Below are positions 31,712 through 62,219 of a stretch of 64,000 bases of DNA, one piece after another. The DNA comes from an uncultured bacterium (GTDB lineage: Bacteria > Omnitrophota > Omnitrophia > Omnitrophales > Aquincolibacteriaceae). Positions within the stretch are counted from its first letter, which is position 1; each line of letters starts with the position of its first letter. The position numbers were made by a program, and so were the translations under genes. A model generated the notes under the pieces. It saw nothing but the letters and a program-made list of their open reading frames with translations, was not told the origin of the DNA and made no database searches. The DNA lies in the NCBI GenBank assembly GCA_964420575.1, contig CAYQTU010000002.1, positions 18,534-82,533 on the forward strand, given 5' to 3'.

Positions 31712-31719
31712 GGGGCGCG

Positions 31720-43390: not shown

Positions 43391-44011
43391 ATGGGATACA
43401 CACATTATTGGTATCGCAAGGACAGGGAAATAGAAGGGAAGATATTTGAGCGGATCGTCTCGGATTTCAGGAAATTACTGCCGGCGATTGAGAAACTCGG
43501 GATCGCACTTGCCGGCGGCAATGGATCAGGAGATCCCGTGATTGACGGCACTCTCGTTTGTTTCAACGGTTTTGAGAAGTGCGGCCATCCGGCGTCTTAC
43601 GAGCTTGGGATCGCATGGCCGTCTCAGAACGCCAAGGGTGTTGCGAATCCTTGGCGGGAAGATGTCGAAAGCGGGCATTGGTTTGGCGGCGCGACGATCG
43701 ATAAACGTACGTGTTCCGGGGATTGCAGCCACGAAACCTGCTGGTTTCCGCGGATTCTTCCGGAGGACCGTCACACCCGGTTCGATTCACACCCCACCGA
43801 AGAAGGCGGCAGCGGCTGGCACTTCAGTTTCTGCAAGACAGCCTACAAACCATATGACCTCGCGGTGACCGCGTTTCTTGTGATTGCGAAACATCATCTA
43901 AAAGAGAAACTCTCGGTCCAGTCGGACGGCGAGACCCAGCATTGGGCGGATGCCCGGATCCTGTGCGAACAGGTTCTCAGCTACGGCATCGGCTTCGAAC
44001 TGGACCGTTAA
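43391..44011 (+). CDS. hypothetical Cys/His-rich protein
   Basis: RBS TAGGAGGAAAAATC; 206 aa; CSGDCSHETCWF. Confidence 0.55.
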   Translation: MGYTHYWYRKDREIEGKIFERIVSDFRKLLPAIEKLGIALAGGNGSGDPVIDGTLVCFNGFEKCGHPASYELGIAWPSQNAKGVANPWREDVESGHWFGGATIDKRTCSGDCSHETCWFPRILPEDRHTRFDSHPTEEGGSGWHFSFCKTAYKPYDLAVTAFLVIAKHHLKEKLSVQSDGETQHWADARILCEQVLSYGIGFELDR

Positions 44012-44086
44012 AGTCAACCCATCCCTTAAACGAGCGGAAGGCGCTTTAGGGCGTCTTTCGCTTTTTCATTTGAAAGGAGCTTCGTA

Positions 44087-44254
44087 TGCATGAGGTGCTT
44101 ATGGAAACCGATGATCGCAGTTATTACACGGATCGTCTTACCGAGTTCACGGGAAAACCCCGGATTTTCTGGGCTCATGTCCCGTTCTCCGAACTCAAAC
44201 GAATCTTCGTGAGAAAGATCAAGGAAAAGGAGGAGGTGATCAGCCGTGAATGAA
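44087..44254 (+). CDS. hypothetical small protein (55 aa)
   Basis: ATG 44087 preceded by GAAAGGAG; not in ORF track because shorter than its length cutoff. Confidence 0.35.
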
Positions 44255-44393
44255 ACAGATTGGATCATTCTGCTTTTCATCGTCATTCCGGGGATCATTC
44301 TTTGCGCCGTCTTGGATACCCGGCGTGAGCAAAAAGAATTCAGGAAATGGCTAAGAGAGGGCAGATGGAAATTTGAAAAATTCAAGCACTGAA
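44247..44393 (+). CDS. hypothetical small membrane protein (48 aa)
   Basis: GTG start overlapping previous stop; hydrophobic WIILLFIVIPGIILCAVL. Confidence 0.3.
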
Positions 44394-44421
44394 AATCAAG
44401 AACATCAAAAAACAAATCCAA

Positions 44422-44454
44422 AACGCGAGGCCTTTCCGCCTCGCTTTTTCATTT
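44422..44454 (+). terminator. rho-independent terminator
   Basis: GCGAGGC-CTTTCC-GCCTCGC then TTTTTCATTTT. Confidence 0.65.
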
Positions 44455-44473
44455 TAAAGGAGGATATAAACCC

Positions 44474-45544
44474 ATGAAACTCGAAGAATTGGTCAAGACA
44501 CTCGAATCCGAAAAACTGAGGAAGTTCGATTATCTGGTGGACTCCCGCGATCTTTCGGCCGTTTCACAAGTCGGAGGTTCGCACGGGATTTCGTTCCGGG
44601 ATGCCGGAAAATTCCGGGAGTTATCCGAAACCACTCAATTCAACCTGCTGCGCGGCGCTCACCGTCAGATCGCGGATAAACTGGAGATCCCGGAAAAGTA
44701 TTACGATCGCCTTCTCCTGCATCCCGACGCCTGGGCCTTCAATGTGAACTGGTGGCTTGAGCGGGAGCCGAAGCATTTTCTGATGCGGACTTTTCAGGAG
44801 AAAAATGACGGTATGGGAATCATCCGGGCGCTTCTTTCGAATAGATACCGGGTGATCGATCACATGGACGCGCTTTTTACCGCTCTTGAGGAACTCCGGA
44901 AGTTTTCGGGGGTCCGCGTCGAATCCTGCGATCTTACCGAAGACCGGATGTATTTGCGGGTGAGTCATCCCGGGATTCGTGCCGAGATAAAACCGGGCGA
45001 TGAAATACTTGCCGGGATGATCCTCGCCAATTCGGAAACCGGGATCGGCAAACTCTATGTGAAACCCCGGCTTCTTCGTCTGGTCTGCAAAAACGGATTG
45101 GTGACGGATCTCGGGGTGGAGCAGGTTCATCTCGGGAAAAAACTTTCCGAGGAGTTTCTTTACTCGGATGAAACCCAGCGTCTCGAAAACGAGCTTCTTT
45201 TTCGGAAGATCAAGGACATGGTCCGCTCTATTTTCTCGCCGGACACGTTTCAGAAACTCGTCGATCTTCTTCGCGAGTCCGCTGAAGTGCGCGTTCTCGA
45301 ACCTGAGAAAGCGGTCAAGAATATCGTCACCCGTTATGTCCTTCGGGAAACTCAAAAAGAAGAGATCCTCCGGAGTTTCATTGACGGCGGCGATTCCTCC
45401 AAGTACGGCCTGATCCAGGCCGTGACGCACGCTGCTCACGCGGAAACTGATCCAAATGAAGCGTCTCGAATTGAGGCGATTGGCGGTGAGATTCTCGAGA
45501 TGGACCCGGCTCGTTTCGAGGAGTTAGTTACGATTAAAGCCTAA
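44474..45544 (+). CDS. DUF932-family protein (conjugative-element/phage-plasmid-associated)
   Basis: 356 aa; RBS TAAAGGAGGATAT; pattern HRQIADKLEIPEKYYDRLL...PDAWAFNVNWWL...LSNRYRVIDHMD...GMILANSETGIGKLYVKPRLLRLVCKNG resembles DUF932; untested by search. Confidence 0.5.
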   Translation: MKLEELVKTLESEKLRKFDYLVDSRDLSAVSQVGGSHGISFRDAGKFRELSETTQFNLLRGAHRQIADKLEIPEKYYDRLLLHPDAWAFNVNWWLEREPKHFLMRTFQEKNDGMGIIRALLSNRYRVIDHMDALFTALEELRKFSGVRVESCDLTEDRMYLRVSHPGIRAEIKPGDEILAGMILANSETGIGKLYVKPRLLRLVCKNGLVTDLGVEQVHLGKKLSEEFLYSDETQRLENELLFRKIKDMVRSIFSPDTFQKLVDLLRESAEVRVLEPEKAVKNIVTRYVLRETQKEEILRSFIDGGDSSKYGLIQAVTHAAHAETDPNEASRIEAIGGEILEMDPARFEELVTIKA

Positions 45545-45636
45545 GATCTGCCGCATGCTCTGGCGGGGAGTTTTTATTCTCCCCGCCGGGGGTCCTCCCT
45601 GGATTTTTCAATTGCATCGAAAGTGAGGTGATAAAA

Positions 45637-46017
45637 ATGAGAGGTTACGTTCTTGGCGAGATGCGGAAAGCTTGGGCTTGGTATAAACGGATCGTTTCGT
45701 TTTTCGCGCAGTGGATATTTCAGATGTTTCTTCGTTTGTTTATTCTCTGCGTGACGCTCTATGTTCTGGGTGGCGGCTGCCTTTTAAAGTCCTATCAAAA
45801 TAGCGGAAAAGGATCTGAACCGCCCGTTTCAACTCCGCTTGGAAACGGTCCCACCAACACGGATTATGAGTTTAATTCGCGAGGAGCGGTTCCCATTTAC
45901 CGTGAAAGAAACGAAGGACTCCAGAGCCAGCTTCGAACCAGTCAGTCGCAAGTGCGATCGTGGGATTATACGATCAACTCGATTAAAAACGATATCGAGC
46001 GTTGGTTCCGGAAATGA
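45637..46017 (+). CDS. hypothetical membrane protein
   Basis: ATG 45637 after AGTGAGGTGA; TM helix FQMFLRLFILCVTLYVLGGGCLL. Confidence 0.5.
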   Translation: MRGYVLGEMRKAWAWYKRIVSFFAQWIFQMFLRLFILCVTLYVLGGGCLLKSYQNSGKGSEPPVSTPLGNGPTNTDYEFNSRGAVPIYRERNEGLQSQLRTSQSQVRSWDYTINSIKNDIERWFRK

Positions 46018-46025
46018 CGGGGATC

Positions 46026-46070
46026 GGGGAGAGGGGTTGCTCCCTCTCCCCGAAAAGCGCTCTTTTTTTT
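46026..46070 (+). terminator. rho-independent terminator
   Basis: GGGGAGAGGG-GTTGCT-CCCTCTCCCC then GAAAAGCGCTC-TTTTTTTT. Confidence 0.6.
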
Positions 46071-46289
46071 GCCCAAAATCAGCTAATAATTTCACGTTTT
46101 CCTATTGTGTTTCTCGCAATTTTGATCATCCCTCATCAACCTCAAAAAATGTTTCGGCCGCCCCTTGCAAAAAAGAATTTCATACATTACAGTTCCTTTG
46201 CCCAAATGGGCACCCTGAAAAAAGTCTTTTCTTTTTTCGGGACGTTTGCGGTGGGTGATATGAGGCATCCACGCATGACATAAAGAACC

Positions 46290-46620
46290 ACCTATAGTTG
46301 GAGGCGAGACGCAAGCGCGTCTCGACGTATGCAGACTATAACTCAAGGCCGTGTGAGTCTGGACACGGCAACGCGGAAGGGTTGTTCGCGTCAGAGTTGT
46401 AGTGTGCCTCCAATCCCTTTTCCCCTCAGTTCGATCTTCACTCCTGTTTAAGTCCTGACCCTGTCAGGCGTCTGATCCTGGCCTGAATTTTTCCATTCAG
46501 GAACCTTCTCTCTTTTTTCAATGTCGATCCCTATCTTGGGATTCCTTCCAATGGGCATGGTGTCTTCGCATACTTCGCGGCCTTAAAAATCTTTTTTCGT
46601 TTTTAAGGCCCTCATTTCTT
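46290..46620 (+). ncRNA. candidate structured noncoding RNA or oriT-like multi-hairpin locus
   Basis: No credible ORF. Nested long-range pairings (TGGAGGC 46297 / GCCTCCA 46406 enclosing hairpins GAGACGC-aagc-GCGTCTC, CCGTGT-gagtctgga-CACGG, ACGCG-gaagggttgtt-CGCGT); further hairpins CCTGAC/GTCAGG, CCTGAAT/ATTCAGG, 11-bp perfect IR GGCCTTAAAAA/TTTTTAAGGCC (46579-46610). Bracketed by its own terminator. Confidence 0.35.
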
Positions 46621-46623
46621 GAA

Positions 46624-46658
46624 ACGGGCAGCCCCTTTCCGGGTTGCCCGTTTTTTTT
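46624..46658 (+). terminator. rho-independent terminator
   Basis: ACGGGCAGCC-loop-GGTTGCCCGT 10-bp stem then TTTTTTTT. Confidence 0.7.
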
Positions 46659-46697
46659 CCTCATTCCAGTTCTTCGCACGGCGGAAAGGACACCGCC

Positions 46698-47306
46698 GTG
46701 TCTACAAAGAACGAAAACGAAGAACAGAATCAAAACCTTGCCGAGGAGGCTGGGGAAGAAAGAGAAGAACGAACCAAATCAAGAACAAGGGCGGTTGATT
46801 TCATGCGTGTGGAAGATACGCAAGGCCAAACTCTCACTCACTTTGAACTGAAAGTGAAAGAAAAGATCGCCTGTGTCCCGAGTCCTTTTGAAGAACTCGC
46901 CAGGAAGGAGGATGAGGAAAACCGGTCCGAAGAGGTTCGAAACACACTGAGGGACTTAGTGGAGAAGGCTTTGACCGAGAAACAGAAAGCCTGGTTCCAT
47001 CTTGCGTACGTGGAAGAACTCCCGGACTTTGAGATCGCGAAACGCCTCGGCGTTACGAAACGCCGGGTTTCGTCTCTTAGAGCCGAGGCCTTAAACGCCT
47101 TCAAGCGCGTTTATGAGAAAGAACGGCTCAAGCAATATCTGGACACCTGCGCTCTCACGGAAAAACAGAGGCTTGTGATCGAACTCCGCTTTGAGAAGCG
47201 GCTCTCCTATAAAGAGATCGCGGAACGGTTGGGAGTGACGGTTTGGGCCGTGGATGACGTTTTAAAACGGATCCGGAAAAATTTTTTCTCTCGGGAAAAT
47301 TCGTGA
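46698..47306 (+). CDS. transcriptional regulator with two tandem sigma-70 region-4-like HTH domains
   Basis: LTEKQKAWFHLAYVEELPDFEIAKRLGVTKRRVSSLRAEALNAFKRV and LTEKQRLVIELRFEKRLSYKEIAERLGVTVWAVDDVLKRIRKNF; no region-2 detected. Start taken as GTG 46698 (alternative ATG 46803) because the ORF-track start 46644 lies inside the upstream terminator. Confidence 0.6.
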   Translation: MSTKNENEEQNQNLAEEAGEEREERTKSRTRAVDFMRVEDTQGQTLTHFELKVKEKIACVPSPFEELARKEDEENRSEEVRNTLRDLVEKALTEKQKAWFHLAYVEELPDFEIAKRLGVTKRRVSSLRAEALNAFKRVYEKERLKQYLDTCALTEKQRLVIELRFEKRLSYKEIAERLGVTVWAVDDVLKRIRKNFFSRENS

Positions 47307-47365
47307 AACCTACGAAGACCTATTCCGAACAGGGTCGTTTTGGCCCAATACTATGAGGGGAGATG
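47305..47365 (+). promoter_or_regulatory. conserved ~60-bp promoter-like element, copy 2 of 3
   Basis: GAAACCTACGAAGACCTATTCCGAACAGGGTCGTTTTGGCCCAATACTATGAGGGGAGATG; begins immediately after the stop of the region-4 regulator gene and ~95 bp upstream of the pilin gene. Confidence 0.6.
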
Positions 47366-47461
47366 CCACCCATTCAAATTTATTTGTGAGCGTCGCGATT
47401 CGCGGCTACCCCAGGGGGTTTAAGGCAAATCCCCCCTCACCTTATGAGGAGGGTAAAGAAC

Positions 47462-47779
47462 GTGAATGGAAAAAGTATTGGTCCAAAAATTCAAAAACTG
47501 GCCCTGTTCGGATTGCTCCTGTTGATCCGGGCACAGGTCGCGTACGCGGAAGCGACCTCGGAATCGGATTTAGGATCGTTTCTCGAGGGTGTCGGTGATT
47601 TTCTGATCCGAACGGTCGGTCCCGCCGTGCTCGTGATCGGGGTCGGAGTGGCCGGGGTCGGGATGGCGCTTGGCGATGAGCGCGCCATGCAGCGCGGCGC
47701 GCTTGCCGCGGGCGGCGGCGCTCTCATTTTGCTTTCCCGCGCGATTCTCGATTTCATCACGCACATCGCGCATTTTTAG
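47462..47779 (+). CDS. VirB2/TrbC-like conjugative pilin precursor
   Basis: GTG 47462 8 nt after GAGGAGGG; signal peptide ...LLLLIRAQVAYA|EA, two hydrophobic helices (TVGPAVLVIGVGVAGVGMALG; AAGGGALILLSRAILDFI). Confidence 0.6.
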   Translation: MNGKSIGPKIQKLALFGLLLLIRAQVAYAEATSESDLGSFLEGVGDFLIRTVGPAVLVIGVGVAGVGMALGDERAMQRGALAAGGGALILLSRAILDFITHIAHF

Positions 47780-47790
47780 GAGGTTTTGAA

Positions 47791-48069
47791 GTGAAAACGC
47801 TGAAAGGTTTCACGAAAATTCAAAGCAAGAACAAGATCCTCGGGCTCGAGTTCCTTGATCTTTTGATCCTGCTTCTTGTTTATCTGGTGGTGTTCGTTTT
47901 CTCCGCGAACCTTCTCCTCAACCTCGCGCTCGTGGCGGGAGCCTATTTTATTTTACGGCTCTACAAAAAAGGGAAGGCCCCGCACTGGGCGGGTTCTGTG
48001 ATCCGGTTCTTGCTAAAGCCCCGGAAATACGTTTTATGCCGGGAAAAAGAAGAGGAGCTTCCCCGATGA
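47791..48069 (+). CDS. VirB3/TrbD-like small membrane protein
   Basis: GTG after GGAGG; 92 aa with one or two TM helices; position between pilin and VirB4-like ATPase with 4-nt overlap. Confidence 0.45.
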   Translation: MKTLKGFTKIQSKNKILGLEFLDLLILLLVYLVVFVFSANLLLNLALVAGAYFILRLYKKGKAPHWAGSVIRFLLKPRKYVLCREKEEELPR

Positions 48070-50579
48070 AAACGAGTCTTCTCACTAAAACTCGGGACCT
48101 CATCCAGCGGGAGAATAGTCCCTCGTTTCTGCGTCAGATCGATCTTTATGACATTGAGGACGGAATTCTGCTTGGGGTAAGCGGCAGCATGGCTCGCGGG
48201 TTCTGGTTTGGCGGAAAGGATGTACTGCTTTCAAGCGAGGCCGAGATCGAGGATTTCGAAAGAAAGATGCGAAAGTTCTTAAACGCGCTCCCGGAAGGAG
48301 CAACTCTCCATTTCGTGGTCCGATCCGGGACTGGGGATGAAGACTCACTCAAGCAATACGCCTCTTCGATTCAAAGCGGAGTTTCGCTTGGAAAAACCTT
48401 TCTTGACGCGAAACTCGGCGCGTACCGGAAACATCCTCTTTTGAAAAAGGAAGTTTTTTTGTTTGTGGTGATCCATCCGAAGACGAGAAAACCGCGTTCC
48501 TCGTTTCTTCCGGATCTGTCCGTCGCATTCGGGAAAAAAGCGCACCGCCTCTCCGAACTTGAATACTCCGCATCGAGAGAAACGCTTCACGCGCTTACGA
48601 CCGAGATCGAGGAAAGTTTCCGTACGCTCGGTTTCGATATGCGCGCGCTTTCCGACCCAGAACTCACCAAGTACTTGTATGAGTTCCTGAACCCGTTTTA
48701 TTCGAAGGAATTCGTTCCCTTCGAGAAAGCCAATTTTAAAGCGAGCGACTCTGACCCGGCGAGCCTCAGAAGCCGTCTTTCGCTTCATCCTCCGCGTCTT
48801 GGGTACGAGTATTTCTATCTCGACCACTATTTTTACCGGGCATTGAATCTCGTCCGTTTGCCTGACTCCACGACTCTTAAATCCATGAAAGATTTCGAGC
48901 GCTCGCTCGGTAACGATTATTTCCTTACGGTCACTTTCGAGGTTCCCGATCAGGACCGCGAGAAATCGGAGATCCGGCGGTACGGGAACTTCGCGAGAGC
49001 GAAAACCTTTTACTCCCGAGCGAAGGATCATGACGCGCTCGCGCAAGCCGGGGAAACGGACGAGCTTTTGACGGAGATTGCCCAAAGCGCGGACAAGCTC
49101 TTTTACGTTTCGTTTTCCGTGATGGTGCGTGCCGAGACCTTGGGAGAAAGCGTCCGGTCTTCCAGGCAGGCGCTTCGTGCTTTCCGGGATCTCGGGGACG
49201 CTCAGGGGATCGAGGACCACATGAATCACGACCGTTTATTTCTTTCGTTTTTGCCGCTTCAGGGCGATGAAAACCCGCTCGCGTTCATAGTTCGTTCCGA
49301 AGTCCTAACGCATCTTCTTCCGCTTCAGGCGAGCTGGCGAGGGACGGACCGGATCGGGCTGCTTCTCAAGACTTACCGTAACGAACCGCTCCGCCTCGAT
49401 CTTTTCGATTCGAAGCTTCAGGCGAAACACAGCGTAATGCTCGGCACGACCGGGAGCGGAAAGAGTTTTTTTACGAACCACTTACTCCTTCATTTCCTGA
49501 TTGAGTCTCTGGATCATGAAGTGATCGTGATCGACCTGGGCGGCAGTTACCGGAAACTGGCCGGAGTTCTGGGCGGGTCTTATCTCGAAGTAGAATGCTC
49601 GGAAAAATACGCGTTAAACCCTTTTCCTGCCAAGGCAGTTCTTTTCCCGGACGGAGGAGCGGACGCGACTTTCATTCAGTTCCTGAAGGAACTGCTCAGG
49701 CAGATGATCGCCCCGAGACGGGAATGGTCCTCAAGCGAGAAGATGATCCTTGAACGGGCGATTCTGGAAGTCTACCGGAATATTGGTGCCCAGGATGCCC
49801 CGCTTCTCGGGGACATCGAAAAATGCCTTCGCAATTTCCAGATCGGGGATGAGGAGGACCGCAAGAAAGCGTATCAGTTCGCGAAAGAACTTACGCTTTT
49901 CACGGAAGGCGAGTACGGGAAGATCCTTAACCGATGCGGGGTCTTTGATTTTAATTCGCGGTTCACGGTTTTCGATCTCCGGAAGATTTCGCAATACCCC
50001 GAGCTTCAGGAGATCCTGCTGCTCATTATTCCGTTCGCGCTTCGCCGTAAATTCGAGAACTTGAATCTAAAGAAGATCCTCGTTTTGGACGAATGCTGGC
50101 AGCTTCTGAAAGACAGTCAGGGGACGGATCTTGTCGAGACCTTCTACAGGACCGCCCGGAAAATGAACGCCGCGGTTTGCTCGATCTCTCAAAACCCAGC
50201 GGATTTTCTCGAGGCGTCCATCGCGAGCGTCATGATCAATAACTCTCCGGTTAAATACATCCTTCGGCTCAAGGAAGGCCACGGGAAACTCTCGCTTTTC
50301 GGGCTGAACGAAAACGAGATCAAAGCGGTCGGGGAGCTTGAGGTGAGACCGGGCCGGTACTCGGAAGTGTTTATCAAATTCGACGATCGAAGCGTCATTG
50401 CCCGTCTTGAGCCAAGCGCTCTCGAGTATTGGGCCGCCACGACGGACGCTCTGGATTTGGCAGAGGAAACCCGGCTCCGGAAAGAACATCCGGATTATCC
50501 GCCGATCAAGATCCTCGAAACGCTTTCCCGGGAGTTTCCAAACGGCGTTAAGAAATCAAACGAGGCGGATCATGTCTGA
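48066..50579 (+). CDS. VirB4/TrbE/CagE-like type IV secretion ATPase
   Basis: ATG 48066 after GAGGAG; Walker A MLGTTGSGKSFF, Walker B ILVLDECWQLL, ~840 aa, conserved C-terminal region. Confidence 0.9.
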   Translation: MKTSLLTKTRDLIQRENSPSFLRQIDLYDIEDGILLGVSGSMARGFWFGGKDVLLSSEAEIEDFERKMRKFLNALPEGATLHFVVRSGTGDEDSLKQYASSIQSGVSLGKTFLDAKLGAYRKHPLLKKEVFLFVVIHPKTRKPRSSFLPDLSVAFGKKAHRLSELEYSASRETLHALTTEIEESFRTLGFDMRALSDPELTKYLYEFLNPFYSKEFVPFEKANFKASDSDPASLRSRLSLHPPRLGYEYFYLDHYFYRALNLVRLPDSTTLKSMKDFERSLGNDYFLTVTFEVPDQDREKSEIRRYGNFARAKTFYSRAKDHDALAQAGETDELLTEIAQSADKLFYVSFSVMVRAETLGESVRSSRQALRAFRDLGDAQGIEDHMNHDRLFLSFLPLQGDENPLAFIVRSEVLTHLLPLQASWRGTDRIGLLLKTYRNEPLRLDLFDSKLQAKHSVMLGTTGSGKSFFTNHLLLHFLIESLDHEVIVIDLGGSYRKLAGVLGGSYLEVECSEKYALNPFPAKAVLFPDGGADATFIQFLKELLRQMIAPRREWSSSEKMILERAILEVYRNIGAQDAPLLGDIEKCLRNFQIGDEEDRKKAYQFAKELTLFTEGEYGKILNRCGVFDFNSRFTVFDLRKISQYPELQEILLLIIPFALRRKFENLNLKKILVLDECWQLLKDSQGTDLVETFYRTARKMNAAVCSISQNPADFLEASIASVMINNSPVKYILRLKEGHGKLSLFGLNENEIKAVGELEVRPGRYSEVFIKFDDRSVIARLEPSALEYWAATTDALDLAEETRLRKEHPDYPPIKILETLSREFPNGVKKSNEADHV

Positions 50580-50699
50580 GGCGGTAGCGGAACGGCACAA
50601 ACGATGGATCGGAAGAATTCGCCGGAGACTGTTTCTCCGGTTCTTTTTGGGGGTTCTGATAATTAGCCTTGGATTTTTACTTTTATTTGGGAGGTAATT
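50571..50699 (+). CDS. hypothetical small membrane protein (42 aa)
   Basis: ATG 50571 overlapping VirB4 end; RRRLFLRFFLGVLIISLGFLLLFG. Confidence 0.3.
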
Positions 50700-50700
50700 T

Positions 50701-51468
50701 ATGAGGAAATCATCAAGGATTCTATTTCTGGCGCTCTTTTTACTGAGCGCCGCGATTCCGAGATCTTACGCGCTCATCGTGAACGATCCAATTCACACCG
50801 CGGTCAATCAGCTTCAAAACTCGATCCTTCAAACCGAGTGGGCGAAACAGATTGCGCTCGCGATCGAGCATCTCAACCAGCTCACGAATCAAACTATGGA
50901 GATCTTCCGGTTTCATTCGGGGCTGGATGAGATTTTAAATTCCATCATCGGCGATCCTTTACGGAATCTTCTCGGGCAGGGCACCACGAATTTGCAGAAC
51001 GCTTTCAGAGATCTCGGCCTTACCGGTTCTCAAATCCAGATCGTGCAGGGAGCGACCGGTCCAGAAGACATCCGTTTCGCTTTGGAGGATCTCACCGGGA
51101 AAATCCCGGAAACGGACGCGAAACCCTACCTCGCGTTTGACGAGATGCAGGTGGTGGACGCCTTCGATCTCGCCCGGCAGATCCGGCAGGCGGGAGACAC
51201 GACGCGCACTGCCGCAACCCAGATCGCGGATGAGGCCGTGACCGCAAGCCCGAAAGGGGCTGTGCGCCTCCAGGCGCAGGCCATGTCCCAGCTCATGGTG
51301 CTCAGTCAACAGAACCAGGAAGCCATGGCGAAACTGCTTGAACTTGAAGCCACAAAAATCTCTCAGGTCACGCGCGAAGAAAAACGCGTGGAAACGGAAC
51401 GCCTCAAATTCATGGAAGACGCCGGCGATTACGCGGACGGTATTGCCCGGGCGTTTATAGGAGCGTAA
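50701..51468 (+). CDS. secreted alpha-helical protein, possible VirB5/TrbJ-like
   Basis: Signal peptide MRKSSRILFLALFLLSAAIPRSYA; helical/coiled content; position after VirB4. Confidence 0.35.
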   Translation: MRKSSRILFLALFLLSAAIPRSYALIVNDPIHTAVNQLQNSILQTEWAKQIALAIEHLNQLTNQTMEIFRFHSGLDEILNSIIGDPLRNLLGQGTTNLQNAFRDLGLTGSQIQIVQGATGPEDIRFALEDLTGKIPETDAKPYLAFDEMQVVDAFDLARQIRQAGDTTRTAATQIADEAVTASPKGAVRLQAQAMSQLMVLSQQNQEAMAKLLELEATKISQVTREEKRVETERLKFMEDAGDYADGIARAFIGA

Positions 51469-51475
51469 TTATTTT

Positions 51476-52336
51476 ATGGCTGGTTTCTTTAGCGCAAACG
51501 AAGGGTTCCTCTTCACGAATGTGTTGCAGATCCCGAATCTTTTCGAGCAGCCGTATCAGACCATGTCACGGATCGGGTTTATCCTGCTTTCGATCCTTTT
51601 CATCGTGGCGATCCTTCATGAGAATTTTCAGGCGCTTAAAGGCAAGTCCGATTACACGGGCCTTTTCATCCGGGTCCTCTTAGTCGTCGGGCTTCTCATT
51701 CTTTACGAGCGGTTCTTCATCTGGATCGTGTACGGCTCGGATCTTGTGTCGAACGCGATCATGCCGCATGAAGAATTCCAGGAAGTCATTAAAGCGTTCC
51801 TCAAACAACCGTTGAGCTGGAAAACTGCGTGGAAATTCGATCTAAGACTTACCGCCACGGTCCTAAATTACGTGACCTACGCGATTGCCGGGGCGCTCCT
51901 TGGCGCGATTATGATGCTCCGGTTTCTGCTTTTGTCGTTCCTGTATGTTGTCGGCCCGATCGTGATCTCGGCGGGGATCTATAAAGGGACCGCTCAGGGC
52001 CTAAACGCCTGGCTTAAAAGTCTCGTCTCCATTTCCTCATGGAATATTTTTCTCGCGGTTCTCATGAAAGTCGTCTCCGTCATGAATCTGACCGCGATCT
52101 ATCTCACGGAAGAAAGCAATTTCATGATGATCCTCGCCGCGAACGTGCTTTTTATCGTGCTCTTTGTGCTCGTCCCGCTTCTTTCCAACCAGTTCGTTTC
52201 CGGGGGGAACCTGGGCGGTCTTGGCTCCATCGCGCTGGGCGCGTTTACCGCGGTAGCGACCCGTTACATCATTCCTAAATCGCCTTCATCCTCAAAACCT
52301 CAAACCCCAACCGGGCAAGGAGCCGGTTACAAATGA
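51476..52336 (+). CDS. polytopic membrane protein, possible VirB6/TrbL-like
   Basis: 286 aa with >=5 hydrophobic helices; C-terminal Ser/Pro/Gly tail; T4SS operon position. Confidence 0.45.
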   Translation: MAGFFSANEGFLFTNVLQIPNLFEQPYQTMSRIGFILLSILFIVAILHENFQALKGKSDYTGLFIRVLLVVGLLILYERFFIWIVYGSDLVSNAIMPHEEFQEVIKAFLKQPLSWKTAWKFDLRLTATVLNYVTYAIAGALLGAIMMLRFLLLSFLYVVGPIVISAGIYKGTAQGLNAWLKSLVSISSWNIFLAVLMKVVSVMNLTAIYLTEESNFMMILAANVLFIVLFVLVPLLSNQFVSGGNLGGLGSIALGAFTAVATRYIIPKSPSSSKPQTPTGQGAGYK

Positions 52337-52980
52337 AAACTCGATTCCACGAAAGACTCGAGACCATGAAACGCCGTTATTATGAGGTGTTCGGAGATCT
52401 GGAAGCGCAAGTCGAATTCCTGAAACTCATCAGTCTTTTTTTGCTCGCGCTTCTTTTTTTCACGATCTTTGGCGCTTTTCTGCTCGCGAAACGGCCGCCG
52501 GTGGTGATCCGGGTAAATGAGGTGGGACGAGCCGAAGCGATTCACGATCTTGAGCAGAATAACGCTCCGAGCGATTTCGAGCTTTTCGATTTCTCAAAGA
52601 CTTTCACGAAAAGATTCCGGGAACTCAACTCCTATACGCTTGCAAACGATACCGCCGAGGCCTGGAACCGCATGACGACGCGGTATCGGAAAGTCGCGGA
52701 CCGGGATCTTGTGGACTCCGGATTCTTCGCGAAATTCCATGATACCGGTCTTTACACGCATATCGAGTTCAAGGAAGAATCGATCGACCGGAATACTCCG
52801 GAATACGTGAAAATCGCGCTGATCGGGGTGCGGACCATCCTCAATTACAACGACCGGGATTATAAGGAATCGAGTCTCTTTAAAGCCGAGCTGCTTTTAA
52901 AGAAGGTTCCGAGAAGCAAAGAGACGCCTTGGGGCGTCCTTGTCGAAGACTACCGCGAAATCCTCCTCAATAAACTCTAA
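52333..52980 (+). CDS. VirB8/TrbF-like bitopic protein
   Basis: Cytoplasmic N-term, single TM (LISLFLLALLFFTIFGAFLLA), periplasmic ~150-aa domain; 4-nt overlap with upstream gene. Confidence 0.5.
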   Translation: MKTRFHERLETMKRRYYEVFGDLEAQVEFLKLISLFLLALLFFTIFGAFLLAKRPPVVIRVNEVGRAEAIHDLEQNNAPSDFELFDFSKTFTKRFRELNSYTLANDTAEAWNRMTTRYRKVADRDLVDSGFFAKFHDTGLYTHIEFKEESIDRNTPEYVKIALIGVRTILNYNDRDYKESSLFKAELLLKKVPRSKETPWGVLVEDYREILLNKL

Positions 52981-52997
52981 AAATCTTCGTTTTTTTT

Positions 52998-53063
52998 CTC
53001 AAAACCTACGAAAACCTATTCCGAAACACCCCGTTTTGGCCCAATACTATGAGGGGAGATGTA
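52998..53063 (+). promoter_or_regulatory. conserved ~60-bp promoter-like element, copy 3 of 3
   Basis: TCTCAAAACCTACGAAAACCTATTCCGAAACACCCCGTTTTGGCCCAATACTATGAGGGGAGATG, ~85 bp upstream of the VirB9-like gene. Confidence 0.6.
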
Positions 53064-53144
53064 CCGGTCTCCCGGGGGCCATTCGGGCCCTTCAAGATGA
53101 CTTGGTTTCTCATCCCCTCCATTTACATAAGGAGCGGGGAATCC

Positions 53145-54170
53145 ATGAGAAAACCAAATCAAATCTTTAGTTTTGCGGTGCTTGCCGCATTCGTCCTTGT
53201 TCATGCTTATTCTCTTTCCGCCTCGGAGATCAAAGACCCGCAGTCAAATGATGAGCCCGCAGTTCAGGAAGAAAAACAGGACTCGCTAAAAGATCGCCAG
53301 CATTTCAACAAGCTCAAGCGCAGCACGCAGAATATCTACAAAGTGACCATGCGTTCTACGGTCGCCTTCAAACTTCAAACCGCGCTTGGGTACGTCTCTA
53401 CGATCGATCTTCCGGAAAAAGCCCTCAAGGTGTTCGTGGGAGACCAGGAGCTTTATAAAGTCGAGGTCTATGAAAAACAGGTCCTCATAAAACCCATTAC
53501 GGATGAGTTGGATGCGAAAACGAATCTCGTGATCATTACCGCTTCCACGCGTCTTGCGTTCGATGTTTCGGTCGGCCCTCCGGATACTGCCGATTTTGTG
53601 CTCGATTTCCGGCTTCCTCAGGATGACGAAACGCTCGTCCATAACGCGTTTGAGGAAAAGATCCAGGAAAAGGTTGAGGAACTCCAAACCGAGTTCCGGA
53701 AAAAAGAAGAAAAACTCGGAGAGAAGGCCGAGGTGCTTTCCGAAGAGAAGATCAAGGAGAAGGTGGCAAGCGGTGCCCGCGCGCTTGATCTCAAAAAATC
53801 CAAGGCCGAGTCCGAGGTGCAGCTTAATCTGCTTTCGCTTTCCCAGGTTGGAAACAAGCTCTATCTTCGTTTCTCGGTCCTGAATTATTCAAAAACACCA
53901 TACCGCGTTCTTAAAACCTTCGTGGGAATCCAGACCTACGAGAAGAAATTCCTCGGCAAGAAAGAATCCGGGATCATCGAAATCCCCTCCGAACTCAAAC
54001 TCGCTTCAGTCATTAATCCGGACAGCTATGAGTACGGGGTTCTTGTGTTCGATTACCGCGCGATGGGGAAGGATGAAAAACCCGTGCTCCGGCTCCTGGA
54101 AGATACGCCAGCGGCCGGTTCTTCAAAACCCCGGAATTTCGAAATCAAAGGATTCGAGTGGTTCAAATGA
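53145..54170 (+). CDS. VirB9/TrbG/CagX-like outer-membrane T4SS component
   Basis: ATG 53145 after AAGGAG; signal peptide MRKPNQIFSFAVLAAFVLVHAYS; N-domain pattern VAFKLQTALGYVSTIDLPEKALKVFVGDQELYKVEVYEKQVLIKP...TNLVIITASTRLAFDV. Confidence 0.6.
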   Translation: MRKPNQIFSFAVLAAFVLVHAYSLSASEIKDPQSNDEPAVQEEKQDSLKDRQHFNKLKRSTQNIYKVTMRSTVAFKLQTALGYVSTIDLPEKALKVFVGDQELYKVEVYEKQVLIKPITDELDAKTNLVIITASTRLAFDVSVGPPDTADFVLDFRLPQDDETLVHNAFEEKIQEKVEELQTEFRKKEEKLGEKAEVLSEEKIKEKVASGARALDLKKSKAESEVQLNLLSLSQVGNKLYLRFSVLNYSKTPYRVLKTFVGIQTYEKKFLGKKESGIIEIPSELKLASVINPDSYEYGVLVFDYRAMGKDEKPVLRLLEDTPAAGSSKPRNFEIKGFEWFK

Positions 54171-55147
54171 AGGAAAGGATAGAAATGTTTAAGAAAAAAC
54201 CAGAAAAGAAACCGGACGATTTAACGCCTCCGCCGGAACAGGAATTTTTCGATGAACCGAAGCGCGTGAATAAAGCGGCGGGGTTCGTTCAGGATCTGTT
54301 TGAGAAGAAACGGTTCCGTGTTGCATTCGTAATCGCCGGAGTTTTCATCCTTTCAGTGCTTCTTTTCTATAAACCGTCCCCCAAACATATCGAGAGGCCA
54401 GTTCCTCAGCCGGAAGAGAACCGGATCGTTATCACGAGCCAGTCCATGGAACGCGCGATCGATTCCTCTGCGAAAGGGAAGACCTCGCGTGTTAAGCAAA
54501 TCGAATCCCGCCAAAATCTTTCTCAAAAACGCAAATTCACGAGCGAAATGGCAGTCTTCATCGAAAAGGCCGAAAAACCAAGACCGGAACTCTCTTCTCA
54601 GGGACGTACTGTTGATGTGAAGCTCGGTATCCCTTCCGGGACGAAGATTCCGGCACTTTTGAGCGAGCGGATCTTTTCGTTCAATGTCGCCGCTCCCGTG
54701 ACGGCAGTGCTTACCAAAGATTTCAGCCTCAAAAATCAAGTTTTGATCCCCCAAGGTTCCCGGTTCCTGGGGGAAGTGAACGTCGTGAAATCGGTGGACC
54801 GGGTGAACGTTCGATTTGATCTTTTGATCTTTCCGGATGGACGCGAGCTTCGCATCCGGGCGATCGCTCTTTCCGAGGATGGTTCGGGCGGGATTAAAGG
54901 AAAAGTGGATAAACACACCGACACGAAAGTCCTCAAGGCCATTGGGGAGACCCTGCTTGCCGGCGCTTCTCTTTTTGTCGGCGGGAGAAGCCAGGACGCC
55001 TACAGCCTTGAAGATCAGATGCGTGTCAATCTCGCGGACAATCTCACGAATCAGGCGTCGCAGGACTTACGAAGCGTCAAAGTGGACAAGAGCATTACGG
55101 TCGATTCCGGGATCAACATCCAGGTAATGCTTCTCGAAGCAATTTAA
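54158..55147 (+). CDS. VirB10/TrbI-like T4SS protein
   Basis: Cytoplasmic N-term, TM (FVIAGVFILSVLLFY), Pro-rich linker, C-terminal barrel pattern GTKIPALLSERIFS...VTAVLTKD...LIPQGSRFLGEV...RFDLLIFPDGREL...GSGGIKGKVDKH. Confidence 0.7.
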   Translation: MVQMKERIEMFKKKPEKKPDDLTPPPEQEFFDEPKRVNKAAGFVQDLFEKKRFRVAFVIAGVFILSVLLFYKPSPKHIERPVPQPEENRIVITSQSMERAIDSSAKGKTSRVKQIESRQNLSQKRKFTSEMAVFIEKAEKPRPELSSQGRTVDVKLGIPSGTKIPALLSERIFSFNVAAPVTAVLTKDFSLKNQVLIPQGSRFLGEVNVVKSVDRVNVRFDLLIFPDGRELRIRAIALSEDGSGGIKGKVDKHTDTKVLKAIGETLLAGASLFVGGRSQDAYSLEDQMRVNLADNLTNQASQDLRSVKVDKSITVDSGINIQVMLLEAI

Positions 55148-55171
55148 TCAAACAAGGAGGAGTACAAAACA

Positions 55172-55420
55172 ATGAAGAAAAGATACGAAGGCGGATTCAA
55201 GGAAGTGAAGAAGGTGGCTGTGGTCGAGACGCGGGACGGTGAGGAACTGCATTTTACCAAAGTGGAAGTGGACGGAAAAATCCGGGGGGATATCCGGTAT
55301 TTCACAGCTCGGGAAGGACAATCGATGATGCCGGGAAGACGGGGGATCCTGATTCCTGAAAATCCGAAAACGTTTCAGGAGAACGTTGAAAAACTGATCA
55401 AGAGTCTTTCGGAAAAGTAG
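55172..55420 (+). CDS. hypothetical protein
   Basis: RBS AACAAGGAGGAG; 82 aa. Confidence 0.5.
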   Translation: MKKRYEGGFKEVKKVAVVETRDGEELHFTKVEVDGKIRGDIRYFTAREGQSMMPGRRGILIPENPKTFQENVEKLIKSLSEK

Positions 55421-55473
55421 ACAAGGACCGGTGAAAGATCATGTTCGAATCTAAAAGGGAGGAATCGCTCGTG

Positions 55474-56826
55474 ATGAAAAAGGGTAACGTGTGGGGTGTC
55501 GCCGTAACGCTTTTTGCGGTCGTTTTGTTTTCCGCGAATGCTTTCAACGCCGCAGCGGCGGATGTCGCCCTTTCGCCGGAGCAGTTTGGGTCCCTTTTAA
55601 CTCTCGATGAAGCCGTGGCAAGAGCGCTCAAAAACCACGCGGAAGTGAAACGGGCGGTTGCCCGGCTTCAAAAAGAGGAGTCCCTTTACAAAGGGGCCCT
55701 CGCAGAGTTTTTTCCCAAACTATCCGGCGAGATCACGTCCGCAGTCGCGACGGGCGATAAACATTTCGTGAATTACGTGGATACGGGGATTGAGCAGCCG
55801 ATTTTTCAGGGCGGGAAAGCGGTGGCGCAGAAACAGAAACAAAAGGCGATTGTTCAAAGCGAACAATTACGGTTGGAGCAGGCCAAACTCGATGTCGAAG
55901 CCGGCGTCCGGGTCTTGTACGCCGAGGTGCTTTCGGAAAAGGAACTGACCCGGATCGCGCAAGGCGAGGTCAAGGAACTTTCCACGCAGTATGAGCGGAT
56001 CAAGAAACTCGTCGAGCAGGAGGTTCTTCCTCGCTACGAATTTTTCAGGATGGAGACGCTTTTCCAGGGCGCGAAACAAGCGCTCGTCAAACACAAGGAA
56101 ACCTGCGATTACCTGTTTACGGTTCTTAAGGAAACGATCGGGATCGGGGAAGGAGAATCCCTGGATCTGGAACCTCTCGGGGATTTCCAGGAACTTGACG
56201 AGAACGCGCTTTCCTATCTTACAAGCGCCCGCAAAAGCGATCCGGTCTATAAACTCCGGGACCTCAAGATCCGCGAAAAAGAGTATGAGAAAAAGGAGCT
56301 TTCCGCCGACCGGTATCCGCACTTAAGCCTTACCGCGAAATGGAACGAGGCGAGCGATGTTTTCGTGGACACAAACCGCGTGATGGTTGGTTTTGTCGGG
56401 AAATGGAACATCTGGGATTTCGGCAGGCTCGGTTCGAAGATCAACGCGAAATCTCATGAGATCGAGGAAATGAAATGGGAAGGCGAACTTCAGGTGAAAA
56501 AACACGAACGCGGGATTCGCGAGGCGTTTCACGAGGCCCGCGCCGTCCGCGAAAAGATCAGGTTAACGGAAGCGCTCATCCGCGAACGCGAGGAACTCTA
56601 TAAAAACGAAAAGACAAGATTGATCGCCGGGGAAAAAGGCTCCGGAGAATTGATCGATTCCTTTATGGCGCTCGAGGAAGCGAAGATCAAAAACGTGCAG
56701 GCGGTGGCCGAATACCGCGTTCTTCTCGTGAAACTTGAGAAAAAAGCGAATTTCGAAACGGAATCGCAAGGTTCCGAGACCGAAATGCCGGTTCCGCCCT
56801 TCGACTCCGGGGAGGTGGAGGAATGA
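55474..56826 (+). CDS. TolC-family outer membrane efflux protein
   Basis: ATG 55474 after GGGAGG; signal peptide MKKGNVWGVAVTLFAVVLFSANAFNAAAA; two OEP-like repeats with coiled-coil character. Confidence 0.7.
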   Translation: MKKGNVWGVAVTLFAVVLFSANAFNAAAADVALSPEQFGSLLTLDEAVARALKNHAEVKRAVARLQKEESLYKGALAEFFPKLSGEITSAVATGDKHFVNYVDTGIEQPIFQGGKAVAQKQKQKAIVQSEQLRLEQAKLDVEAGVRVLYAEVLSEKELTRIAQGEVKELSTQYERIKKLVEQEVLPRYEFFRMETLFQGAKQALVKHKETCDYLFTVLKETIGIGEGESLDLEPLGDFQELDENALSYLTSARKSDPVYKLRDLKIREKEYEKKELSADRYPHLSLTAKWNEASDVFVDTNRVMVGFVGKWNIWDFGRLGSKINAKSHEIEEMKWEGELQVKKHERGIREAFHEARAVREKIRLTEALIREREELYKNEKTRLIAGEKGSGELIDSFMALEEAKIKNVQAVAEYRVLLVKLEKKANFETESQGSETEMPVPPFDSGEVEE

Positions 56827-58409: not shown

Positions 58410-58428
58410 AGAGGAGGAGCCAAAAGAA

Positions 58429-59496
58429 ATGAGTGACACACAGACGAACGAAAAACCCGAGAAAGACAAAAATAAAAACACGCAGGAGCCAGCTCTTTTT
58501 GAAGAGAAAACGGAGGGGGGCGGTAAATGGAAAACGAGAGTTTTCCTGATCCTTCTTATCCTGGGAGTGGGCCTTATTTTCTGGCCCAAGGGATACATCA
58601 AGGGAGAAGGGATTGTTCAAGCCGATCGGTTTGCGAGGATCGGGCTTACGAGTTCGGGGATTCTGAGGGAGCTGCTGCATAAGAAAGGGGATACGGTGAA
58701 GAAAGGAGAGTTGCTCGTGCGTTTCGAGAATCCGGAACTCTCCCGGAAATTCGAGGAACGGAAACTGAACCTCGAGATCCTGAATCACGATAAAACACGG
58801 CTTGAAAAGCAGGTTGAATTTCTCGCTAAAGACAAAGACCGGAAGAGCATTCTTTTCGAGAACGGAGTAATCGGCCGTCTTCAGTTCGATAAAGCCGCGC
58901 TGGATTATACCCAGGTCGCGGAAGAACTCAGTATGCGCTTAAAAGAGATCGAGTCGGTTGAAGGGGAAGTGAAATATTTGAAGGAAAGAGCGGAGTCACT
59001 TGAGCTTAAAGCGCCGTTTGACGGAATGCTTCTTACGGATCCCGGTATTACGATCGGGAATCTCTTGAAGGAAGGCGATTTTGTTTTGGAATTTGCGGAC
59101 CCGCGAAGTTTCTTTCTTGAAGTTCTTGTGTTTGAAAAGGAAGTGGAAAAGGTCGCGCCGGGAAACACCGTCACGGCCCGATTCCGTGCTTTTCCCTGGA
59201 AGACTTATTCCGGGGTTGTGACGGAGGTTGGTCCTCGCACCACCGATGAGATCGAGAAAGTTTTTAATGTGAAACACGTGGTCCCTTGCGAGATCAAATT
59301 GGATGAGTTCCCATCAAACGCGAAATACGGAATGCGTGCCTGGATCAAGATCAGCGGAAGACGCCGGATCTTGCAAAATAAGACGCCAGTAATCCAAAAA
59401 CCTTCTCAGGAGGAGCTTGCGAGATTCATCAATCCGAAGGCGCTCGATATGAAAGCTCCGGGTAAGGAGAAAGCAAACGATGTACCGGTTAAATAA
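58429..59496 (+). CDS. HlyD-family membrane fusion / periplasmic adaptor protein
   Basis: N-terminal TM, biotinyl/lipoyl-like hairpin TSSGILRELLHKKGDTVKKGELLVRFENPEL, coiled-coil, beta-barrel C-term. Confidence 0.75.
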   Translation: MSDTQTNEKPEKDKNKNTQEPALFEEKTEGGGKWKTRVFLILLILGVGLIFWPKGYIKGEGIVQADRFARIGLTSSGILRELLHKKGDTVKKGELLVRFENPELSRKFEERKLNLEILNHDKTRLEKQVEFLAKDKDRKSILFENGVIGRLQFDKAALDYTQVAEELSMRLKEIESVEGEVKYLKERAESLELKAPFDGMLLTDPGITIGNLLKEGDFVLEFADPRSFFLEVLVFEKEVEKVAPGNTVTARFRAFPWKTYSGVVTEVGPRTTDEIEKVFNVKHVVPCEIKLDEFPSNAKYGMRAWIKISGRRRILQNKTPVIQKPSQEELARFINPKALDMKAPGKEKANDVPVK

Positions 59497-59538
59497 AACA
59501 GCTTATTTATCAATTATTAAAAGGAGGGGGCATTACAC

Positions 59539-62151: not shown

Positions 62152-62219
62152 AAAAACAAAACAAGGCCTATTCTAAATTTAAACACGGGAAAGGTAATTC
62201 AAAGAAAGGAGTAAGTAAA

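Follow-up and report, generated by a model that had tools for sequence, protein, structure and literature searches.

In conjugative elements the transfer genes are kept strictly silent, and whether to transfer is most often decided by a repressor protein or by antisense RNA. How this decision is made in the conjugative element carried by a 64,000-nt stretch of an Omnitrophota contig (referred to as the window, meaning the whole stretch that was analysed) is a question raised by one noncoding interval in it (about 46018-46697, + strand). This interval lies between the gene for a 126-aa protein without a Pfam domain (45637-46017, + strand) and a regulator gene (46698-47306, + strand, GTG start), the 202-aa product of which carries two sigma70 region-4 helix-turn-helix (HTH) units (Pfam Sigma70_r4 twice, E = 5e-19). 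An initial annotation had described the interval as a highly structured noncoding locus and had offered two identities for it, a small RNA (sRNA) or an origin of transfer (oriT)/single-strand origin. All the inverted repeats that it named are present in 45400-47400, with small coordinate corrections. The evidence presented here points to a large conserved sense-strand leader RNA (46199-46658, + strand; ~460 nt, assigned from fold and conservation) and to double control of the element's master regulator. Specifically, we consider it probable that the leader is a cis-acting, structured RNA that gates the regulator twice, once at transcription termination and once at translation.

Homologues of the locus were gathered via regulator-protein searches, exact look-ups of contigs encoding regulator homologues, and one metagenome DNA-pattern scan (L-numbers are labels of homologous loci). 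This yielded ~17 distinct versions of the intergenic region from metagenomes and metagenome-assembled genomes (MAGs), the named records among them being MAGs labelled Omnitrophica and Candidatus Harrisonbacteria. The versions form four clades, namely A (the window and L016), B (L001, L018, L024, L036/L045, L069-L071 and L025), C (L002, L028, L043, L074 and L003) and D (L020), next to one distant member (L072). Every homologue adjoins the same regulator gene on its upstream side; trbC follows the regulator in all contigs that reach past it (all but L070, L072 and L073), and the traL-like gene and traC come next wherever the contigs extend that far. The metagenome pattern scan returned 43 loci, nine of which were real by nhmmer (only four of these being new sequences), and the remaining loci gave no match to a covariance model of the leader's core. 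This model (R1) found exactly one copy within the 64-kb window, recovered the new member L074 at 126 bits, and had no match in 354 kb of unrelated loci, viral and metagenome chance pattern matches included. In viral contigs, a 16-mer pattern hit 12 loci, all of them chance matches according to the covariance model, and a scan with the regulator profile found none; blastn of the locus against PLSDB plasmids likewise gave no match. Because the core of the window is 74-85% identical to that of clades B and C, compared with 59-62% for the regulator coding sequence and 69% for traC, the noncoding core is under stronger sequence constraint than its coding neighbours.

The sigma70-like promoter suspected in the initial annotation could be placed at 46165-46193 (+ strand), with TTGCAA (46165-46170) and TACAGT (46188-46193) separated by a 17-nt spacer. 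Its hexamers are conserved among the homologues: CTTGAAA/CTTGCAA and a TAnnnT hexamer are kept in 12/12 aligned members that include the promoter region, with a freely variable spacer. A strict consensus scan did not call this promoter, because only 8/12 consensus positions match. From its position, the transcription start is predicted near 46200, at the foot of the 5′-terminal hairpin.

The + strand RNA of 46200-46665 folds at -173.4 kcal/mol (z = -7.9, with 0/100 shuffles as good), the - strand RNA of the same stretch at z = -3.95, and the 128-nt core alone at z = -5.0. All helices described below are given on the + strand. The 5′-terminal hairpin P1 (46199-46212) forms in every member with differing sequence, its pairings being GCCC/GGGC, CCCA/UGGG, GCCCG/CGGGC, ACCCC/GGGGU and ACCGAU/AUCGGU across the family. 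The hairpin P2 (46214-46241), which is A/U-rich and has 10-11 bp, forms independently in every member and has its arms changed from CUGAAAAAAG/CUUUUUUCGG to CAGAAGAG/CUUUUCUG in L043 and L074. P3 (46248-46274), supported by RNAalifold and by individual folds, is again present in each member with a different sequence and has a conserved AUAU(G/A)AGG loop; at one of its pairs, RNAalifold reports UA:5, CG:3 and UG:3. It is followed in the alignment by a conserved single-stranded junction, AUGACAUAA (46275-46296), of which GCAUGA(C/U)A occurs in nearly all members, L020 included (L002 has GCGUGACA).

This junction leads into the core domain P4-P8 (46297-46414), which is supported by both covariation and fold z. 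Its closing stem P4 (46297-46304/46407-46414) corresponds to a long-range pair in the initial annotation, consisting of TTGGAGG (46298-46304) with CCTCCAA (46407-46413) once the 5′ arm start, given there as 46297, is corrected. The pair does enclose hairpins as proposed, although not three in parallel: the core is a four-way junction containing a three-way junction. Within P4 lie P5 (46305-46324), a hairpin with a variable tip, and the 13-nt stem P6 (46332-46344/46394-46406), which carries the hairpins P7 (46348-46354/46363-46369) and P8 (46371-46377/46385-46391). Helix covariation was assessed at an alignment depth of 11-15 sequences. For the core helices (11 sequences), 97.4% of 462 cells are paired and five pairs change on both sides, compared with 32-48% paired for slid partners, and 0 shuffles match the observed covariation score. 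The covariation is located in P4 and P5. Two candidate pseudoknots, spotted by eye, were rejected, one between the P8 loop (AGGGUU) and the linker (AACCCU), which covaries in clades A and B and in L002 and fails in L043, L028, L003 and L020, and one between the P3 loop (UGAGG) and CCUCA, which shows no covariation in clade C.

A covariance-model search and a comparative alignment had both been suggested as checks. The Rfam 15 search, run on 45900-46900 and six homologous loci, gave no family match at the leader and returned only sub-threshold, terminator-driven hits to Phe_leader, suhB and L20_leader (<30 bits); at gathering threshold, a c-di-GMP (cyclic di-GMP) riboswitch at 9734-9824 was the sole Rfam 15 match in the window. 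The alignment did reveal compensatory changes, with the pairings kept in homologous elements.

Downstream of the core, a poorly conserved C/U-rich linker with clade-variable hairpins (46415-46525) holds two mid hairpins that had been noted earlier, CCTGAC/GTCAGG (46454-46468) and CCTGAAT/ATTCAGG (46482-46501). Both are specific to the window's own clade A, the remaining helices being conserved. At the place of the second one, clades B and C have UUCCGGA...UCCGGAA followed by U4-6 (e.g. L001 3745-3790), a form that is absent from clade A, shows compensation (GC:7 / AU:6) and looks like a weak additional terminator. The 3′ domain (46526-46578) comprises P10 (46526-46543) and then the conserved single strand CCUUCCAAUGGGCAUGGUGUCUUCGCAUACUUCGC, and is conserved in clades A and B, less so in C and D. 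P11 (46579-46610), an A/U hairpin of GGCCUUAAAAA and UUUUUAAGGCC with 12 pairs, is what the initial annotation had listed as an 11-bp inverted repeat (measured here at 11-12 bp); its closing-pair types are UA:11, CG:2 and UG:2.

The leader ends in an intrinsic terminator (46621-46658) with a 14-bp stem (8 G-C pairs), a 6-nt loop and a U8 tract, the stem-loop spanning 46621-46654 and the T-run extending to 46658. Its earlier description as strong is borne out by a scan of 44000-63000, in which it is the strongest site. The terminator is present in 16/16 members that include the region, with GC-to-AU compensation in three of them, and its loop and 3′ arm (CCGGGUUG(C/U)CC) hardly vary, which is unusual for a terminator. 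Over the mid hairpin, P11 and the terminator, 96.9% of cells are paired, with six compensatory pairs. As a separate observation, CACGGCAAC (46364-46372), made up of the P7 3′ strand and the junction after it, mimics the terminator 5′ arm (ACGGGCAGCC, 46623-46633). By its sequence, CACGGCAAC could pair with the terminator 3′ arm (46642-46650), and the likeness changes in parallel, with GCGGCAA at both places in L020 and AAUCC at both in L072.

The strand on which this structure operates was read from the mismatches that it tolerates. The core helices contain 41 G·U cells and 4 A·C cells, and 41 G·U cells amount to C·A mismatches on the opposite strand. As DNA, the stretch folds better than shuffles on both strands (z = -8.2 for + and -6.1 for -); because both values lie below -6, fold energy is uninformative on strand, and the G·U/A·C counts were used instead. 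Given these counts, the conserved promoter and the U-tract terminator, a + strand RNA is the only economical reading. In agreement with the earlier statement that the stretch has no credible open reading frame (ORF), the homologues share no conserved ORF, however short, and between-clade indels with a length that is not a multiple of three number 14-18.

The region just after the terminator links this RNA to the regulator. Out of ~450 12-mers in the leader, one in the P7 5′ strand (GCCGUGUGAG...) tops the ranking for pairing with the 42 nt that follow the terminator in 7/8 members and comes fourth in L002, its duplex having a dG of -14 to -21 kcal/mol and a z of -2.6 to -4.9 relative to shuffled targets. 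The corresponding long-range helix (LR) pairs the P7 5′ strand and P7 loop (GCCGUGUGAGUCUGGA, 46348-46363, identified by the best 12-mer and by covariation) with UCCAGUUCUUCGCACGGC (46665-46682), located between the terminator and the Shine-Dalgarno sequence (SD; GGAAAGGA, 46683-46690) of the regulator. LR spans ~300 nt, has 15-17 bp and ends one base before the SD. It extends through the whole P7 loop, and this loop part covaries in six forms: CUGG:CCAG in the window, CUAG:CUAG in L016 and clade B, CUAG:CUGG in L070, CGGAC:GUCCG in clade C, ACCGAAC:GUUCGGU plus UGG:CCA in L020, and GGAU:GUCC in L072. Although the cores of the window and L016 share 93% identity, the two differ in LR by a matched G-to-A / C-to-U change. 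A P7 pair is lost in L072 through a U-to-C change that turns an LR pair from G·U to G-C. On the joint alignment (A10), 97.2% of LR cells are paired and three pairs (11 cells) are compensatory, compared with 28-46% paired and 0 compensatory cells in slid controls. Comparative support for this long-range switch helix is unusually clear.

The same sequence can also fold locally. When folded alone, the post-terminator region masks the SD or the start codon within a hairpin in 16/16 members, with differing sequences. In the window this hairpin is CACGGCGG[AAAGGACA]CCGCCGUG (46677-46701), and the GTG start codon (46698-46700) lies inside its stem. In clades A and B, CACGGCGG pairs with CCGC(C/U)GUG and the start codon is in the stem; in clades C and D, GGUUCUCC pairs with GG(A/G)GAA(C/U)C and it is the SD that is in the stem; L003 uses GUUGUUGUCC with GGACAACAAC and L072 uses GUCCUCGC with GCGAGGAC. 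In every member, the 5′ strand of this SD/start hairpin belongs to the LR 3′ strand. P7 and the SD/start hairpin are compatible with each other, and LR excludes both in all members examined.

The 40 nt that lie between the end of the U-tract (46658) and the start codon (46698) are conserved in sequence, and reading of the alignment found no conserved promoter-like hexamer pair in them. Because no promoter fits there, the regulator would be made only by terminator read-through. Moreover, because no promoter follows the terminator and the core covaries with the ribosome-binding region of the regulator, the RNA is most readily understood as a cis-acting leader. Of the sRNA proposed in the initial annotation, the RNA part is upheld by the conserved promoter, the terminator and the + strand compensation, and the free-standing part is not.

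The distant member L072 (2640-3060; also L073) has a regulator that is 38% identical and a shorter leader of ~370 nt. This leader retains only a P7-like hairpin (UGCCGUG...CACGGCAAUCCGGAGGAU), a terminator whose 3′ arm is unchanged, the complementarity for LR, and an SD hairpin, which suggests that these four features are the minimal functional set.

In an AlphaFold2 (AF2) model of the regulator (predicted local distance difference test, pLDDT, of 75.7), the HTH units occupy residues 94-150 and 155-197 and the N-terminus is disordered and charged. Sequence and fold searches matched only sigma region 4 and UPF0122 proteins, with Foldseek finding generic sigma region-4 similarity only, none at E <= 0.001. 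Near-identical copies of a promoter-like module are located before the relaxase/coupling protein genes (30268-30322), before trbC (47306-47362) and before virB9 (53000-53059), all on the + strand. The module reads (C)AAAACCTACGAA(A/G)ACCTATTCCGAA, 6-7 nt, GTTTTGGCCCAATACTATGAG, with tandem AACCTA repeats ~10 nt apart, and TTTGGCCCAATA occurs exactly three times in the window, always intergenic and on the + strand. Where relatives have diverged regulators, their modules differ in the repeat part, and the TTTTGGCCCAATACT part is invariant. Because AACCTA repeats ~10 nt apart suit a tandem HTH protein, the three modules are probably the regulon of this regulator. The leader's own promoter has no AACCTA module. 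Such a placement of modules would put the leader atop the cascade and would allow the genes of the type IV secretion system (T4SS) to be expressed independently of read-through from the leader promoter.

These data suggest the following course of events. Transcription would begin at the sigma70-like promoter, at about 46200, and the RNA would fold into P1-P3, the four-way-junction core P4-P8 and the 3′ domain. Most polymerases would end at the terminator (46621-46658), and the regulator would be produced from read-through transcripts only. In the OFF state, the core would be locked with P7 closed, and the pre-SD segment would sit in the local hairpin that hides the SD/start codon. In the ON state, an exposed P7 loop would nucleate strand exchange into LR, by which the SD and start codon would be freed; we infer this direction of the switch from the pairings. 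Since P7 and LR cannot form together, the outcome would depend on the state in which the core is folded, and this state would presumably be fixed by a ligand, a protein or RNA polymerase. Passage through the terminator might be leaky and constitutive, or the core might favour it through an action on RNA polymerase, as has been proposed for the canT and conAn2 RNAs discussed below. The regulator would then probably activate the three AACCTA-repeat modules, and hence the relaxase/coupling protein, trbC and virB9 gene groups.

Several points weigh against such a doubly gating leader. The family is small and shallow at ~17 sequences, and P6-P8 are almost invariant, with changes that are only G-U-compatible single steps; because of this invariance, the support for P6, P7 and P8 consists of one-sided G-U-consistent changes. 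The promoter and terminator were recognised by bacterial consensus and may not be the signals of the host lineages, and the link from the regulator to the modules is drawn from a repeated motif. Transcripts folded up to before the terminator 3′ arm show no conserved antiterminator helix, the partner of the terminator 5′ arm in such folds being a 4-bp GCCC only (clades A and B) or other sites (clades C and D). Furthermore, LR could in principle form in trans, and the minimum-energy folds of read-through transcripts keep P7 in 3/4 representatives (the window, L001 and L043), LR appearing only in L020. Because the minimum-energy folds split between them, the P7 and LR states are close in energy, as a switch requires.

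We class the RNA as a probable cis-regulatory conjugation-control leader that belongs to an RNA family distinct from known systems. By analogy, its closest functional counterparts would be the leader/terminator checkpoints of Gram-positive conjugative elements. In prgQ of the Enterococcus pheromone plasmid pCF10, the IRS1/IRS2 terminators yield a short terminated RNA and rare extended transcripts, termination being the conjugation checkpoint, and the order of parts is the same as here, with a promoter, a several-hundred-nt structured RNA, a terminator, and then small regulatory and T4SS genes (PMC8265641). The two differ in that the anti-Q countertranscript drives terminator formation in pCF10, whereas neither a consensus scan nor alignment reading revealed a - strand promoter-like site in the present leader (weak or non-sigma70 promoters aside), and in that the pCF10 leader encodes a pheromone-inhibitor peptide, whereas the present leader has no conserved peptide. 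They also have no sequence similarity, and the host lineages are different. The iad-TTS-traE1 region of pAD1, likewise an Enterococcus pheromone plasmid, is similar to the prgQ leader of pCF10.

If the model holds, the leader would give Rfam a new family of structured RNA, would provide a well-defined switch (P7 / LR / SD hairpin) that is easy to mutate in tests of transfer sensing, and would be a structural counterpart to canT and conAn2, the conjugation-operon RNAs of Firmicutes. The element comes from poorly studied, mostly uncultured lineages in which gene regulation and mobile elements are almost undescribed. A helix of the LR type, running from a core to a translation start, is not described in PMC8265641, PMC8191782 or PMC11658703.

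As to what sets the core, P4-P8 could be a sensor of a riboswitch-like class, in which a metabolite, a second messenger or a host factor locks or opens P7, although we regard this as a tentative and rather unlikely proposal. Dual-platform riboswitch leaders resemble the present one in having a conserved junction domain, an intrinsic terminator and mutually exclusive pairings that set SD access. They differ in that the leader has no Rfam aptamer match, that its terminator has no conserved competing helix, and that its switch helix spans ~300 nt and uses an internal hairpin (stem and loop) rather than an aptamer closing stem. If P4-P8 were such a sensor, the P7/LR/SD-hairpin switch and the terminator would decide the commitment to transfer of an Omnitrophota/candidate-phyla element, which would make it the first known case of direct control of conjugation by an RNA sensor.

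The core might also act in cis on RNA polymerase as a processive-antitermination RNA of the conAn2, canT, put or EAR type, conferring resistance to 46621-46658 and to later transfer-gene terminators; this could coexist with the translational switch, and we consider it improbable. In conAn of pLS20, the conAn2 RNA and the ConAn1 protein (PF17362, pXO2-34) form a bipartite antitermination system (PMC8191782), and canT of Tn916 is a cis-acting RNA, active at 341-452 nt, located between the element promoter and the terminators that insulate the conjugation genes (PMC11658703). The present leader fits canT and conAn2 (the latter within a 383-bp intergenic region) in size and position (PMC11658703, PMC8191782), and all three are large multi-hairpin RNAs near the start of a conjugation operon, upstream of terminators. 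As in conAn, a large RNA heads the conjugation operon beside a small protein gene, with terminators involved (PMC8191782), and as in canT there are ~340-450 nt with many predicted stem-loops at a similar position. The lack of a conserved competing antiterminator hairpin also agrees with antitermination, as does the sequence invariance of the core helices, which is expected for an RNA contacting a conserved protein, and a further terminator-like site is present at 50621-50641, between traC and the next gene. However, ConAn1 is encoded upstream of its RNA, whereas the tandem HTH protein is encoded downstream of the present leader; the 126-aa upstream and 202-aa downstream proteins have no PF17362 match, and a ConAn1-type protein is not found nearby. 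canT differs in being processive on several terminators, in having no link to translational control, and in belonging to a Firmicutes element; for canT and conAn2, no covariation-supported fold is reported in PMC11658703 / PMC8191782, whereas the present leader has one. Moreover, trbC and virB9 have promoter-like modules of their own, so that long-range processivity is not obviously needed, PLSDB plasmids hold no sequence match, and the covarying LR points to a translational role that antitermination alone does not explain.

Quite unlikely, too, is a stand-alone trans-acting sRNA, in which the terminated 460-nt RNA would pair with element or host mRNAs, possibly including the regulator's own read-through mRNA via the P7 loop. 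The RNA does have its own promoter, a strong terminator, stabilising hairpins at the 5′ and 3′ ends and C/U-rich single strands, and the pairing of its P7 loop with the complementary 5′ untranslated region (5′UTR) of the regulator could also occur in trans. In F-like plasmids, FinP is a separate antisense transcript that represses traJ. The present pairing resembles FinP/traJ in that RNA pairing at the 5′UTR/ribosome-binding region of a master activator is started through a hairpin loop, and differs in that the pairing partner lies upstream on the same transcript and is predicted to open the ribosome-binding region. What argues against a trans-acting RNA is that the sole covarying target found lies 7-24 nt past the RNA's own terminator, in the same transcription unit, that the regulator gene has no promoter of its own, and that the leader pairs with the shared UGAGGGGAG 5′UTR motif of trbC/virB9 no better than shuffles do (z -1.4 to +1.1).

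We give very little credit to a purely DNA-level control region of operators and promoters, possibly with a second internal promoter, in which the hairpins would be incidental. It would accommodate the resemblance of the leader segment GGGACGTTTGCGGTGGGTGATATGAGGCATCCACGCATGAC (46238-46285) to the module sequence GGGTCGTTTTGGCCCAATACTATGAGGGGAGATGCCACCCATTC, and the presence of TTTGCCCAAA at both 46068 and 46197. The compensatory changes, the G-U asymmetry and the 300-nt covariation are not explained by protein-DNA sites, however, and TTTGCCCAAA was rejected as an enriched operator since its count is not above chance. With regard to the first of these likenesses, GGGACGTTTGCGGTGGGTGATATGAGGCATCCACGCATGAC falls in the P3 region and GGGTCGTTTTGGCCCAATACTATGAGGGGAGATGCCACCCATTC is the core of the repeated module (47332-47375), and the two could reflect paralogy or a cryptic internal promoter.

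Still upstream of the RNA, a conserved box T8-GCCCAAAATCAG-TAATAATTTCA (46063-46095, + strand), kept in clades A, B and C, lies ~100 nt upstream of the -35 and is a possible protein-binding site. At 46122-46139 (+ strand), TTGATCATCCCTCATCAA consists of ATCA(T) repeats ~10 nt apart and could equally be taken for an inverted repeat; the corresponding position in clade B is occupied by GATCATGTTTTATCATT. Both sites are candidate operators for a controller of the leader promoter.

A single-stranded DNA (ssDNA) structure used during transfer, whether oriT, a single-strand initiation site (ssi) or an Frpo-like ssDNA promoter, is extremely unlikely, and the second identity offered in the initial annotation is not supported. 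Both DNA strands fold better than shuffles, as stated above, and the upstream neighbours are of the leading-region type (DUF932 here; RadC and PC4 in relatives). Against this stand the 41 G·U versus 4 A·C cells, which make the structure strand-asymmetric as an RNA, the conserved promoter and U-tract terminator, and the covariation with the ribosome-binding region. The window's only relaxase-like gene and coupling protein gene (30947-33540), next to which an oriT would normally lie, are about 13-15 kb away from the leader. The fold is multi-branched and not one long hairpin mimicking -35/-10 boxes, and the conserved -35 and -10 boxes stand in ordinary duplex arrangement upstream of the folded part. 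Finally, a leader-peptide attenuator, in which the ribosome position on a translated short ORF from ATG 46329 (MQTITQGRV...) would control the fold, can hardly be credited, since the ATG and first ~19 codons are kept in clades A-C but these codons are the ones that make up the invariant helices P6-P8, insertions or deletions of 1-2 nt in the P8 loop alter the frame and C-terminus (24 to 42 aa), no SD precedes the ATG, and the ATG is absent in L020.

Around the leader, the conjugation module of the window includes, all on the + strand, genes for a Replic_Relax protein (30947-31711), the coupling protein (T4CP; 31720-33540), TrbC/VirB2 (from 47444), a TraL-like protein (from 47791), TraC/VirB4 (48036-50579), TrbL/VirB6 (from 51476), CagX/VirB9 (about 53.1 kb) and TrbI/VirB10 (54158-55147). 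The conjugation block has a G+C content of ~50%, compared with 35-43% towards either end of the window. The terminator-like hairpin at 50621-50641 (+ strand), which lies between traC and the T4SS gene after it, consists of GCCGGAGACTGTTTCTCCGGT followed by TCTTTTT and may segment the transfer operon. Upstream of the leader, the DUF932 gene (44474-45544, + strand) and small genes take the place that genes for PC4-like (ssDNA-binding) and RadC proteins occupy in L018 (1694-2467), L020 (1136-2339) and L022 (2017-2460), the gene set of the relatives being leading-region-like. Far from the leader, the c-di-GMP riboswitch (9734-9824, + strand) belongs to c-di-GMP-I-GGC (RF03167, 68.5 bits, gathering score 59) and is followed by a 132-aa ORF (10109-10507) and then a giant 5005-aa ORF (10989-26006).

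A second conserved noncoding element is located between the regulator gene and trbC (47307-47443 in the window), and was aligned (A5) for the window, L016, L018, L020, L022, L024, L025, L002 and L043. Within it, UGAGGGGAGAU (about 47354-47364) is complementary to AUC(U/C)CCCCUCA (about 47428-47438), and a variable hairpin would lie inside this pairing; the CCCCUC segment of the 3′ strand is also an anti-SD for the trbC SD GAGGAGG. With these pairings, the element resembles a leader structure acting on translation of the pilin gene. Upstream of virB9 (53051-53120), GAGGGGAGAUG and CAUCCCCUCC make up a comparable pair.

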